Shown here piece by piece: positions 58,396-63,557 of a stretch of DNA of 64,000 nt. The notes beneath the pieces were generated by a model. That model searched no databases and was not told the DNA's origin. It saw only the letters and a list, made by a program, of their open reading frames with translations. Positions within the stretch are counted from its first letter, which is position 1; every line of letters starts with the position of its first letter. This stretch comes from an uncultured Candidatus Babeliaceae bacterium. GTDB taxonomy: Bacteria; Babelota; Babeliae; Babelales; Babelaceae. The position numbers and the translations under genes were made by a program. Location: assembly GCA_963704655.1 (NCBI GenBank), contig OY969927.1, positions 1,056,001 through 1,120,000 on the forward strand, in the 5' to 3' direction.

Positions 58396-59187
58396 ATGAA
58401 AATTAATAAATTATTTATTCTATTTTTTTTCGCACTTACTTTTTCATCAAATCTCTTTTGTATGCAAAAAGAGAATAATAACCTTTTTTTAAAATTGCGT
58501 CAGAGAGAGACATTTGGAAAAATCCCTGAAGAAACCAAAGAGCATATAGCTAGATTTTTTGATAAAAAGTGTTCAGATAAAAAGTGTTCATTTGAAAGGG
58601 CTCTGAAGGATTATGATGATAAGCACACTGCAGTTGATGCATACAGTTTGTTTGTATTAAAAAAGGGTTGTTGCTTTGCCCTGTTAGAGCATGCAGTTGC
58701 CGCTAAGCGGGAGCAGATAATACATGATTTTTTAGACAAACAAAGTCTAGATACAACATGGTTAAGCGCTTTCGCTGCAATGTATATTCATTCTGTAGAT
58801 TTAACTAACGGTGATAATGCTTCTTTGTTTAAAAGAGTTGTAGTCGAGAGAAAGCCAGATCTTAATCTCTTGTATCCGATGCAAATGTTGCATTACCCAC
58901 AACGACTCAATCCTGAATTATATAACTATAAAACAACGCTCTTGCATGATGCTGCTGTATATAAAGACAAACATGTTGTTAAGCTTCTTCTAAGTTTGGG
59001 TGCAAATCCGAAAAATCTCGATGGTGAGGGTAAATCTCCGGCGGACTTACTTCGCCCTGAGGTGAAGAAAGAGGGACATATTAGTGCTAAAAGATTTAAG
59101 GATAATCTTGCATTATTGCAAGAGGCCAAAAGAAAACAAAGTGCGCGTTTGTTTGCAGCGGGAAAAAGAAGAAAGACAAACGAATAA
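58396..59187 (+). CDS. Secreted ankyrin protein with H-box-like N-terminus and C-terminal NLS
   Basis: TTLLHDAA..LLLSLGANP..GKSPAD; LRQRETFG; tail GKRRKTNE. Confidence 0.88.
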   Translation: MKINKLFILFFFALTFSSNLFCMQKENNNLFLKLRQRETFGKIPEETKEHIARFFDKKCSDKKCSFERALKDYDDKHTAVDAYSLFVLKKGCCFALLEHAVAAKREQIIHDFLDKQSLDTTWLSAFAAMYIHSVDLTNGDNASLFKRVVVERKPDLNLLYPMQMLHYPQRLNPELYNYKTTLLHDAAVYKDKHVVKLLLSLGANPKNLDGEGKSPADLLRPEVKKEGHISAKRFKDNLALLQEAKRKQSARLFAAGKRRKTNE

Positions 59188-59207
59188 TACTACGAAATTT
59201 GATAATT

Positions 59208-60038
59208 ATGAAAAATAATTTCTTTGTTTTATTTATGCTTTTGTTTTCATCAAATCTCTTTTGCATGCAAAATAAAAATAGTAATCTTTCTCTTGTTTTG
59301 CGCCAGAGAGAGACATTTGGAAAAATTCCTGAAGAAACTAAAAGGTTTTTAATTAATCTTTGTGAAACGGTTAGATTGCATGAGCGTTTTACGTGGCGAG
59401 ACAAATTTAATGATTTTTATGGAAAGCAACTTTGTTTTAAAGATTTAATAGAAAGTGTTAACCGAACTTACCGCCGTAATGCTTTCCCAGATTATTTATT
59501 AAAGCGCCAAGTAATTATACGTCAGTTTCTAGATACATATGGCTCAAATATAGAATGGATAAAAGCTTTTTTTACAGAGTATTTATTTGTTATGCATTGT
59601 ACTGCTGAAAACAGTAAAATTACGCAGAGATTTGATGATAAGGAAAAAGATTCGTATTTGCTAGAATTTGAAGAGATGAGTTCATTTTTAAAAAGGGTTG
59701 TGAGCGAAAGAAAATTGAGTGTTAATTTTTTATTTCGAGATTCGCCAGGTTATAATAATGACCACAGATCAACGCCGTTGCATGTACATTGCAGGCTAGC
59801 TCATAAATCTGGTGTTGAACTTCTTTTAGGTTTAGGAGCGGATGTAAAAATTCAGGATACAGATCATATGACCTCGGCTGATGCGCTGCGCAGGAAAATA
59901 AGGATCGAAAGGCAAATAGGGATCGAATCTGAACTAGATGCGATGTATGAAGAGATTCTAAAATTGTTGCAAGAGACTAAAAGAAAGCAAAATGCGGGTT
60001 TGTTTGCCGCGGGAAAAAGAAGAAAGACAAACGAATAA
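59208..60038 (+). CDS. Secreted ankyrin protein, paralog 2
   Basis: STPLHV..LLLGLGADV; LRQRETFG; GKRRKTNE. Confidence 0.88.
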   Translation: MKNNFFVLFMLLFSSNLFCMQNKNSNLSLVLRQRETFGKIPEETKRFLINLCETVRLHERFTWRDKFNDFYGKQLCFKDLIESVNRTYRRNAFPDYLLKRQVIIRQFLDTYGSNIEWIKAFFTEYLFVMHCTAENSKITQRFDDKEKDSYLLEFEEMSSFLKRVVSERKLSVNFLFRDSPGYNNDHRSTPLHVHCRLAHKSGVELLLGLGADVKIQDTDHMTSADALRRKIRIERQIGIESELDAMYEEILKLLQETKRKQNAGLFAAGKRRKTNE

Positions 60039-60058
60039 TACTACGAAATTTGATAATT

Positions 60059-61631: not shown

Positions 61632-62147
61632 ATGAGTTATTCTTCAGTGCATCAACACAATAATTTTTGGAGCAGCGAATTAATGCGTGAAAAGTATCAC
61701 GTATTAAAAGTTTCTTACGATATTTTTATTGAAGTAGTTCAAAAAATTGATGATCTTGGGGATCAGGAAATGCCGCTATCCTTAAAACGCGAGCTTTGTA
61801 AAAAATGGGAAAACTTATATAGTTCGATAAATAATATTTTAGATTTTTATATGCAGTATAAACTGCGTAAAGGATTGTCCTGCTTTTCAAATGGAAGGTA
61901 TGTACCTCAAATATTAAAGGCGTATGAGGTTAAGATAATACGTAAAAACGATTATCGATTATTAAAATGTAGCATAGACGAATTGCACAACTCATTTTTT
62001 AGAGATACACGATATATGTTTTTTAATTACAATGAAAAATATGTAAACTATCTGTTAGAAAATAAAGGTGATCTTGCCATATTTGGCCAAAAAATGCTCA
62101 ATAAATTTAGTCAATTTAAAGAATATAGTAGGTTTAAAAATATATAA
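61632..62147 (+). CDS. Hypothetical protein, weak HEPN/HI0074-like helical pattern
   Basis: GGGGGA SD; LKRELCKKWE.., QILKAYEVKII; no catalytic R-X4-6-H. Confidence 0.4.
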   Translation: MSYSSVHQHNNFWSSELMREKYHVLKVSYDIFIEVVQKIDDLGDQEMPLSLKRELCKKWENLYSSINNILDFYMQYKLRKGLSCFSNGRYVPQILKAYEVKIIRKNDYRLLKCSIDELHNSFFRDTRYMFFNYNEKYVNYLLENKGDLAIFGQKMLNKFSQFKEYSRFKNI

Positions 62148-62749
62148 TGATTATGAAAAATAGTTACTTTATTTTACTCATGTTTTTTTTGTATACAAAA
62201 ATTTTTGGTATGCAGAGTGTCTCGAAATTAGAGCCTAGTGACGTAATTAAGCTTAATAAACGTTATAATCGAATATATAGAGACACTCATCAGCCTGAGC
62301 AGGTAAAGCTTACAAGTTTAATGACTCTTATTGAAGAATCTCCATTATACATAGATGAACTTTTGCATAAATTAAATAATGTTCAAAAACAAAAAGATCT
62401 ACAAAAAAAACTTTTTGTGATGGTAATGCTGAATACAAGGTTAACGCAACAAGACAAACTGCAAGTTTTAGAAAGATTTACCAAACAAAGAGACTTTACC
62501 GTAAATTTTTCATGCAAAAAGTCACAAAATTTTGAATTTTTAATAACACCAGTTCATCTTGCAGTGGAAGAATTAGATGGCCCATTAATAACATTTTTAC
62601 GTGATCATAATGCTGATTTAACTGTGCAAATAGACGGCAATACCCCATTAGCGGCATATGAACAATATGTTGTTTATTTAAATAGACTTGGTCATAAAAA
62701 ACCTGAAAATTATGAAGATATGATTAACCTTTTAACGCCAGGGAAATAA
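62147..62749 (+). CDS. Secreted ankyrin protein (family B), paralog of 61021-61596
   Basis: TPVHLAVEELD, GNTPL, shared tail KPENY.DMI.LLTPG. Confidence 0.85.
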   Translation: MIMKNSYFILLMFFLYTKIFGMQSVSKLEPSDVIKLNKRYNRIYRDTHQPEQVKLTSLMTLIEESPLYIDELLHKLNNVQKQKDLQKKLFVMVMLNTRLTQQDKLQVLERFTKQRDFTVNFSCKKSQNFEFLITPVHLAVEELDGPLITFLRDHNADLTVQIDGNTPLAAYEQYVVYLNRLGHKKPENYEDMINLLTPGK

Positions 62750-62855
62750 TAACATTTGGCATCATGATAGTAGCAGGGGGATTCATGTCGCATACAACGG
62801 TTACGATTATCATGGGTGGCAGAAAAGTATTTGAATAAAAACTTAGGGACAAAGC

Positions 62856-63557
62856 ATGAAAAAAAATTATTTTATTTTGTTAATATTTTTATACTTGAGC
62901 GACATTTTAGGTATGCAAAGAGAGAAAAATTTATTTAATATGTTGCGGAAATTTCAAGAGGGTGATTATTCCTATCACTCTGAAATTAAAGGTATTGGGA
63001 GAAATGCTCGGTCACTTTCAACTTTGAATTTCTGGCTTACTGAGGAAGATGAGCACGTTGAAGGCTTAACTGAAGAATATCGATGTAGACTTGATGGAAG
63101 ATGTGGTCAATTAGCTGATTCTATTGTTTCAAATCCAGCTTGTTTGGGAAGTTTTTTCAATAAATTGCATTCTTTTAAAAATGAAAAAATTATTTGGGGA
63201 ATGATATTTATAAAATTATCACAGGACTATCGTTACCAACGTAATAAAGAAATATTAGACATGATGGTTAAGAAATACCAGTTCGATGTAAATTTTATTG
63301 ATCAGTCTTGGTCTCTTGTCAATTATAGAAACACGCCTTTACATAAATCTGTATCTAATTACGATACTACTTTTACCAAAATGTTATTGGATTGGGGTGC
63401 GGATGTTACCATGGTAGATACAAAAGGCCGTACACCAAGGGAGGCTTTTATAAGCAGCTGTTCATTTAGGCGCGAGCATGCAAAAGGAGTTTTAGATCTA
63501 TTAGATATCGCTGATCAAGAAAAAATAATTGAGGATATTAGATTTGTATTACTATAA
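62856..63557 (+). CDS. Secreted ankyrin protein with H-box-like N-terminus
   Basis: NTPLHKSV..LLDWGADV..KGRTP; NLFNMLRKFQEG. Confidence 0.85.
   Translation: MKKNYFILLIFLYLSDILGMQREKNLFNMLRKFQEGDYSYHSEIKGIGRNARSLSTLNFWLTEEDEHVEGLTEEYRCRLDGRCGQLADSIVSNPACLGSFFNKLHSFKNEKIIWGMIFIKLSQDYRYQRNKEILDMMVKKYQFDVNFIDQSWSLVNYRNTPLHKSVSNYDTTFTKMLLDWGADVTMVDTKGRTPREAFISSCSFRREHAKGVLDLLDIADQEKIIEDIRFVLL

Follow-up and report, generated by a model that had tools for sequence, protein, structure and literature searches.

A genus-restricted family of leader-bearing, ankyrin-like proteins with a conserved helix near the mature N terminus, encoded between typA and truA of a Babeliaceae bacterium

Legionella AnkB combines an F-box with ankyrin repeats, poxviruses encode ANK/PRANC proteins, and in the eukaryotic ASB proteins ankyrin repeats are joined to a SOCS box. 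Poxvirus ANK/F-box proteins also appear in the reference list of a study of a cultured Dependentiae pathogen, whose available text reports 98 ankyrin proteins, 78% of them with signal peptides, that are of unknown function and treated as putative host effectors (PMC6561590). Here we describe a related locus in a 64,000-nucleotide (nt) stretch of an uncultured Candidatus Babeliaceae bacterium (contig OY969927.1, positions 1,056,001 to 1,120,000; hereafter the window), whose genome is a single contig of 1.298 Mb with 38% GC. Between typA (56394-58200) and truA (from 63529), at window positions 58396-63557, lie seven same-strand open reading frames (ORFs). Six of them (A to F) are paralogues that can be aligned over their whole length, and four of these six carry, shortly after a predicted signal peptide, a short helical motif that is retained in distant orthologues and occurs on a second kind of ankyrin protein.

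The H-box, through which DCAF receptors and several viral proteins bind DDB1, is described in the available text of PMC9975947 as a short helix of low sequence conservation, marked by Leu or Val at position 7, less strictly by Arg at position 10, by Leu, Ile or Val at position 12 and by Gly at position 13. The same text states that plasticity of the DDB1 cleft makes prediction from sequence difficult and that further DDB1 binders probably exist. The DCAF1 H-box is NFTSRLNRRASSFP, and changing its Leu or its Arg abolishes DDB1 binding (PMC3928422, available text). Among bacteria, AFAP of Anaplasma phagocytophilum is reported, in the available text of PMC11747512, to enter the host nucleus or nucleolus and to co-precipitate DDB1, and DCAF1 is among its proteomic interactors. 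A preliminary description of the window had proposed that the four motif-bearing proteins dock on host DDB1 through an H-box-like helix.

The paralogues and their main parts, including C-terminal tails that resemble a nuclear localization signal (NLS), are as follows; protein lengths are in amino acids (aa), and motif positions were read from the translations.

58396-59187, + strand: gene A, 263 aa, with leader (residues 1-22), motif (residues 29-41), ankyrin-like core and NLS-like tail
58480-58518, + strand: motif of A, NLFLKLRQRETFG, residues 29-41
59128-59175, + strand: tail of A, KRKQSARLFAAGKRRK, which formally matches a bipartite NLS (KR-x10-KRR) and falls in a long helix predicted at the C terminus (residues 230-262)
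59199-60038, + strand: gene B, 279 aa from a TTG start, with an ATG 9 nt downstream; leader-bearing
59283-59321, + strand: motif of B, NLSLVLRQRETFG, residues 29-41
59979-60026, + strand: NLS-like tail of B, from the translation and a pattern match
60050-60919, + strand: gene C, 289 aa from TTG, or 286 aa from ATG, which agrees in length with the public protein P0002; leader-bearing
60140-60175, + strand: motif of C, SLTQYLHEREYG (quoted as KSLTQYLHEREYGS in the preliminary description), from residue 31, with a separate KETFGKIPEE downstream
60848-60895, + strand: NLS-like tail of C, from the translation and a pattern match
61021-61596, + strand: gene D, 191 aa, a leader-bearing paralogue without motif or NLS-like tail; Pfam Ank 18.5 bits, below cut-off
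62147-62749, + strand: gene E, 200 aa, leader-bearing and paralogous to D, without the motif
62856-63557, + strand: gene F, 233 aa, with leader (residues 1-19) and without NLS-like tail, directly before truA
62928-62963, + strand: motif of F, NLFNMLRKFQEG (quoted as NLFNMLRKFQEGD), from residue 25

All six paralogues begin with what we read as cleavable Sec signal peptides, each consisting of a basic n-region (for example, an MK..K start), 11-13 hydrophobic residues and a small residue before Met-Gln ([CSG]|MQ), with no lipobox seen; the calls were made by eye rather than with a signal-peptide predictor. A loose regular expression for a hydrophobic N terminus ending in [AGSC]-Met-Gln matched 19 ORFs of at least 80 aa in this genome, at least three of which are clearly not leaders, and Met-Gln directly behind the predicted cleavage site seems to be a recurrent feature of its exported proteins. 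The public protein that matches B (P0003) has 257 aa and is short enough to begin with the Met inside Met-Gln; such a start would omit the signal peptide, and therefore, judging by length only, the public annotation may hide the export of B.

The motif begins 6-8 residues after the predicted cleavage site in A, B, C and F, and all four peptides that had been placed just after the signal peptide are present in the translations, their carriers being four of the six tandem paralogues. Over the 11 members inspected in this genome and its relatives, the consensus is N-[LI]-h-x-h-L-[RKH]-x-R-[EQ]-x(1-2)-G, where h is a hydrophobic residue, with the following occupancy.

Position 1: N or S in 11/11 (N in 9)
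Position 2: L or I in 11/11
Position 3: hydrophobic in 9/11
Position 5: hydrophobic in 10/11
Position 6: L in 11/11
Position 7: R, K or H in 11/11
Position 9: R in 10/11 (Phe in F)
Position 10: E or Q in 11/11
Position 11: T, T, Y, E, T, M, Q, E, Q, E and T in the 11 members
Position 12: first G in 6/11
Position 13: first G in 5/11

On a helical wheel, positions 2, 5, 6 and 9 (L2, h5, L6 and R9) fall inside ~100 degrees, and the variable positions 4 and 8 lie opposite. The motif thus looks like a capped amphipathic helix of 10-11 residues, with an Asn or Ser N-cap, a Gly C-cap and one recognition face. The assignment in C depends on the alignment: in two alignments (A1 and A4) CKETFGKIPEE of C pairs with RQRETFGKIPEE of A and B and LHEREYG of C falls in an insertion, whereas in two others (A3 and A5) LHEREYG pairs with the motif of the orthologues, a conflict which indicates that C carries both pieces separately. 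The core expression L[RKH]xR[EQ]x1-2G was found in five ORFs, all of which encode leader-bearing members of these families and have the match among their first 60 residues, compared with 2.1 matches anywhere in shuffled sequences, a count that is partly circular because the expression was derived from the same sequences. Consensus patterns for the BC-box/SOCS, PEXEL, RxLR, PP1 RVxF, basophilic kinase, furin/Kex2 and nuclear export signal motifs were compared by eye, and none matched the conserved positions. A search of PDB sequences with the motif profile (E up to 10) returned six rows, every one a glycerol dehydratase (best E 0.044); no DCAF or other DDB1 binder was among them, a weak test because H-box peptides shorter than 20 residues are absent from the library.

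Two further carriers of the motif are encoded elsewhere in this genome: a leader-bearing protein of 332 aa (583358-584356; Pfam ankyrin E 1.2e-5) with the motif NLFTLLKQRETFG, and a leader-bearing protein of 278 aa (884312-885148) with the motif NLVTALRLREMG. In a BLASTP comparison, the 332-aa protein resembled A over its first ~40 residues only (16/36 identical, E 5e-6), with nothing significant in the remainder, which is a multi-repeat ankyrin region; we conclude that the module of leader plus helix is portable. In the sister genomes, a family gene was present between typA and truA in all four loci inspected, as one copy in G001, G002 and G003 and as two copies in G005, with the motifs NIVNFLREREQG, NILGLLRQREEG, SIVGMLRKREQG and NLAELLRRRQESG; a fifth sister genome (G004, 88% complete) gave no family match. 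F occupies the same place before truA as the single-copy genes of the sister genomes, and although these orthologues are only 17-49% identical to F overall, the motif is kept. The second G005 copy, like D and E, retains the core without the helix, showing that the fold does not require it.

To define the range of the motif, a profile of its region (31 positions) was searched against the 41 genomes of the family and 261 genomes of the phylum. Strong matches (E of 1e-9 or better) occurred only in this genome, G001, G002, G003 and G005. The one clear match outside the set used to build the profile was a G001 protein of 350 aa (NIMTLLKERETQG, E 4.8e-5 per genome), which looks like the counterpart of the 332-aa protein described above. 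Outside the genus there were seven weak matches (E 3e-4 to 0.01), compared with ~2.6 expected by our own estimate, and the two that we inspected, from other genera (L038 and L039), lay inside multi-ankyrin proteins just before the repeats and not at a mature N terminus. The preliminary description had made its case depend on conservation of the motif in homologs and had proposed a profile search across the genome and phylum. The motif is indeed kept in the orthologues and carried by all 11 members inspected, and it recurs within this genus, to which its strong matches are confined.

A profile of the whole family likewise gave full-length matches only in the same genus among the 41 family genomes, the rest being generic single-repeat ankyrin matches, and a search for related loci with F returned a single locus (L071, 50% identical). 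Two other searches have little or no bearing on range. When A and the family profile were used as queries in a word-indexed protein search, only the paralogues of this genome and generic ankyrin proteins were returned, and the sister orthologues were missed. The whole-family alignment was a poor query for a set of 1.84 billion representatives, where the best 150 matches were mostly giant multi-repeat ankyrin proteins and included four true members (P0001, P0002, P0038 and P0097). In G001, a 102-aa ORF with a GIY-YIG-like N terminus (by eye) lies between typA and the family gene (L005, 1107-1415). Elsewhere in G001, two leader-bearing ankyrin paralogues stand in tandem (L052, 532-1446 and 1453-2505), of which only the second, the 350-aa protein, has the motif; a tail of the form ...EA.RLR.I... 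is common to both and to the 332-aa protein.

The preliminary description had called the four motif carriers ankyrin proteins, an assignment that structure searches uphold as an ankyrin-like fold but that Pfam supports weakly. Pfam detected a single weak ankyrin repeat near the C terminus, which reached the curated cut-off only in A (Ank, 21.2 versus 21.1 bits); B, C, D and F scored below cut-off, and E had no ankyrin match at E up to 1. The AlphaFold2 models are all-helical, with a mean predicted local distance difference test (pLDDT) score of 74 for full-length A and 82.8 for mature F. Almost all rows shown in a Foldseek search with A were ankyrin-repeat proteins (best E 1.4e-3), and the nearest ESM Atlas clusters were also ankyrin, with one OspC3-family row at 0.95. 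VIA-align matched mature F to ankyrin domains with Z up to 9.8, mostly over residues 27-212, where Z below ~13 is common for helical repeats. Only 5 of the 50 rows started at or before residue 9 and most began at residue 27, after the helix. The ankyrin domains of ASB7 and ASB9 were among the structural matches. No F-box, U-box, PRANC or SOCS-box match was found by Pfam at E up to 1 in the seven array proteins, and no F-box-like match was found anywhere in this genome; a genome-wide U-box search gave no match here and none in the control genomes, and is therefore uninformative. The genome has 13 Ank_2 matches, and several other genomes of the family have 100-800 first-look candidates with the family profile. 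With so few ankyrin loci in the genus, the array makes up a large share of this genome's ankyrin repertoire.

The preliminary description had counted folding of the motif into the protein's own core as evidence against it; in both models the motif is a helix ahead of the ankyrin-like core, with differing confidence. In A it forms residues 30-38 within a stretch (21-41) at pLDDT below 50, and pLDDT stays at 42-58 up to about residue 80, leaving ~40 low-confidence residues between the helix and the confident core. In mature F the helix spans residues 4-15, in blocks at pLDDT 60 and 80.

The C-terminal ends read ...AAGKRRKTNE in A and B and ...AAGKRRKIENNTKW in C. Three of the proteins had been described as ending in AAGKRRK; the sequence is present in A, B and C, but it stands 3-7 residues short of the C terminus, as the end of KRKQ[SN]A[RG]LFAAGKRRK. 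Each of these tails, with KR, a 10-residue spacer and KRR, is a formal match to the classical bipartite NLS, the consensus of which is KR, a spacer of 10-12 residues and then K(K/R)(K/R). The pattern was found in 11 of 1,848 ORFs of at least 80 aa (12 matches, compared with 3.8 ± 1.7 in shuffled sequences), and A, B and C are among the 11.

The array consists of six copies and an orphan ORF and arose by tandem duplication with recombination between copies, whereas the sister genomes hold one or two copies. Three further features lie in the interval.

59101-59273, + strand: A/B junction unit, comprising the 3' end of A, the spacer and the 5' end of B (repeat family D2)
61611-62147, + strand: ORF X, 178 aa, without a leader and unrelated to the six paralogues
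62781-62822, + strand: copy of the truA 5' end, IHVAYNGYDYHGWQ, 42 nt, 88% identical to 63559-63600 (repeat family D10)

The A/B junction is 87% identical in DNA over 173 nt to the B/C junction (59952-60124), and the copy of the truA start between E and F shows that the beginning of truA was part of at least one duplicated unit. A, B and C resemble one another in a mosaic: the motif block pairs A with B (81% aa), the leader pairs B with C (75%) and the middle pairs A with C (57%). Between A and B, the proportion of nonsynonymous differences (pN) rises from 0.10-0.20 at the ends to 0.40-0.50 in the middle, and that of synonymous differences (pS) from 0.22-0.45 to 0.73-0.76, with pN/pS ratios of ~0.3 at the ends and 0.5-0.7 in the middle. 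The outer elements of the preliminary description are supported at the level of sequence: the leader is of Sec type, the tail resembles an NLS, and the ends stay constant while the middle between them changes fast. Constraint on the motif is argued more strongly by its survival in the orthologues that have otherwise diverged from F.

ORF X matches no Pfam family, and none of the five sister genomes contains a homologue. Its stop overlaps the start of E, and a 146-nt repeat (D4; 61489-61634 versus 62642-62787, 84%) extends into its first codons; it may represent either a novel gene or a spurious reading frame, and it may lie outside the ankyrin family. Upstream of the array, typA/bipA is broken into two overlapping ORFs (56394-57347 and 57235-58200) by one extra A after CTT at ~57327, relative to the intact genes of the sister genomes and outside any homopolymer. 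The break may reflect misassembly or a genuine pseudogene, with a +1 slip site (CTT-A-TCC) less likely.

One explanation for these features, which we favor tentatively and which may well be right, is that this genus-restricted family consists of Sec-exported small ankyrin-like proteins of modular, effector-like build, in which the helix is a docking element. The order of parts would be a cleavable leader, a helix at the mature N terminus and a fast-changing ankyrin-like middle, followed in A, B and C only by the NLS-like tail. The helix would be portable and would dock on a single constant partner, most likely one from the host; variable targets would be bound by the ankyrin-like middle, and A, B and C would be directed to the host nucleus by their tails. 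DDB1 is one candidate partner among several. Export beyond the periplasm, docking on a host protein and nuclear import are steps that we infer, and several observations weigh against them. The only export signal visible (by eye) is the Sec-type leader, with nothing that shows exit from the periplasm, and no partner turned up in any search. Being paralogous, the three NLS-like tails represent a single event, and the tail of A lies within a confidently predicted AlphaFold2 helix. Classical NLSs are usually extended when bound to importin. In addition, because pS is also lower at the ends and the junctions are 87% identical, the constant ends are partly due to recent recombination or homogenization and not to selection alone. 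Finally, pLDDT reaches 80 in part of the helix of mature F, so that packing on the core is possible.

This last point leads to the alternative that survives best, although we consider it unlikely: the helix could be a structural part of its own protein, an N-terminal cap or autoinhibitory lid on the ankyrin stack, conserved through folding and gene conversion. Such a role is consistent with the pLDDT of 80 over residues 11-20 of mature F, with a hydrophobic stripe at positions 2, 3, 5 and 6 that needs burial somewhere, with the location of the weak L038 and L039 matches inside multi-ankyrin proteins just before the repeats, and with the partial homogenization of the ends of A, B and C. However, the core is present in D, E and one G005 copy, all of which lack the helix, and the motif is also found on a protein whose remainder has no significant BLASTP similarity to A. 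Moreover, the low pLDDT (<50) of the motif in A, with ~40 low-confidence residues before the confident core, and the structural alignments, which mostly begin after the helix, argue against such a role.

We also considered the possibility that the motif is an export or delivery leader read after Sec transport, at the outer membrane or in the host, or a processing site, and thus a positional analogue of the RxLR and PEXEL elements of eukaryotic parasites. The position of the motif 6-18 residues after the predicted cleavage site in 11/11 members, its presence on two kinds of ankyrin cargo and its basic R-x-R core would all suit such a function. This explanation is nevertheless improbable, since the motif is found only on these leader-bearing, mostly ankyrin-detectable proteins of one genus, with strong matches absent from the other 255 phylum genomes, since D and E share the same leader without the motif, and since it is missing from all other classes of leader-bearing protein in this genome.

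We give little credence, too, to the view that the proteins are not host effectors but ankyrin proteins that act in the periplasm for the bacterium itself, as is known for some leader-bearing ankyrins of Gram-negative bacteria, with the NLS-like tail a chance basic patch. A periplasmic role fits the visibility of a Sec leader only, the lack of a detectable F-box-like domain in the genome, its few ankyrin loci (13 Ank_2 matches) and the occurrence of the NLS pattern in eight other ORFs. In contrast, rapid lineage-specific amplification with a fast-changing middle is typical of genes involved in host interaction, three copies retain the KR-x10-KRR tail, and related bacteria are obligate protist parasites whose leader-bearing ankyrins are regarded as effectors in the available text of PMC6561590.

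The weakest of the explanations, and in our view a very unlikely one, is that of the preliminary description, in which the helix is a (possibly degenerate) H-box in the BPA-BPC cleft of host DDB1 and the proteins are bacterial DCAF mimics whose ankyrin middles choose CRL4 substrates, three copies being nuclear via the bipartite NLS. The motif does have Leu and Arg at the H-box spacing (position 7 in 11/11 and position 10 in 10/11), the two positions whose mutation abolishes DCAF1-DDB1 binding in the available text of PMC3928422, and by eye it has N, L and R in common with the DCAF1 peptide at the same spacing. A Gly ends the helix, as the available text of PMC9975947 describes for the H-box, and that source regards further DDB1 binders as probable and hard to predict from sequence. 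The helix is also followed by a repeat domain of a protein-binding kind, and NLS-like tails are present on A, B and C. On the other hand, Leu, Ile or Val at position 12 is found in 0/11 members and Gly at position 13 in just 6/11, the Gly falling one residue later in the remaining 5/11. The published four-position pattern occurs at chance frequency (36 matches in 1,848 ORFs versus 37.8 ± 5.2 after shuffling; 153 for a three-position version) and in none of the six motif-bearing ORFs of this genome. F and its sister-genome counterparts next to truA lack any NLS, and the resemblance comes down to two or three residues of a common amphipathic-helix pattern. Because the resemblance is partial and the DDB1 cleft is plastic, it neither supports nor excludes DDB1 binding. 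A literature search covering listings and abstracts found no bacterial H-box effector and no description of this motif, in agreement with the earlier remark that no such family was known to be described; the co-precipitation of AFAP with DDB1 is reported without an H-box claim in the available text of PMC11747512.

A short, portable helix with one conserved face beside fast-changing repeats, joined in some copies by an NLS-like tail, provides a concrete handle. Leader-bearing ankyrins are the main presumed host-manipulation tools of Dependentiae and none has a known partner or mechanism, whereas here one peptide can serve as bait and the motif-less paralogues D and E as natural controls. Were the partner DDB1 or another cullin adaptor, hijacking by helix mimicry, for DDB1 so far mainly viral, would extend to bacteria, and with a true DDB1 docking helix these proteins would be the first family of DCAF mimics from bacteria. 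Were the helix only a structural cap, the family would be an ordinary lineage-specific expansion.

Compared with the H-box of DCAF receptors and viral DDB1 hijackers (HBx, SV5-V, UL145, E27 and DCAF1), the family shares a short helix with a Leu, an Arg three residues later and a Gly end, placed N-terminal to a substrate-binding domain. It differs in lacking the hydrophobic position 12 (0/11), in the shift of the Gly by one residue in 5/11 members and in having neither a WD40 domain nor another second contact surface; it is also bacterial, with a Sec leader. With AnkB, the ANK/PRANC proteins and the ASB proteins it shares a design logic, a target-binding repeat domain joined to a short constant docking element, but it has no detectable F-box, PRANC or SOCS box, and its constant element is a single N-terminal helix of 10-11 residues. 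Unlike this family, AFAP is a type IV secretion substrate that is not described as an ankyrin protein and for which no H-box is claimed in the available text of PMC11747512, and the two have no sequence relation. A likeness in setting is to the signal-peptide ankyrins of Dependentiae, such as those among the 98 ankyrin proteins of Chromulinavorax destructans, an obligate protist parasite, which likewise combine a Sec-type leader with ankyrin repeats and are presumed, in the available text of PMC6561590, to be secreted host modulators. The family described here differs from them in being tiny and genus-specific, with one Pfam-detectable repeat, and a literature search at the level of abstracts found no description of a motif at the mature N terminus or of an NLS-like tail for the Dependentiae proteins. 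Leader-bearing ankyrins themselves are known, and what is new here is a set of leader-bearing ankyrin effector candidates with a defined, portable N-terminal helix and an NLS-like tail.

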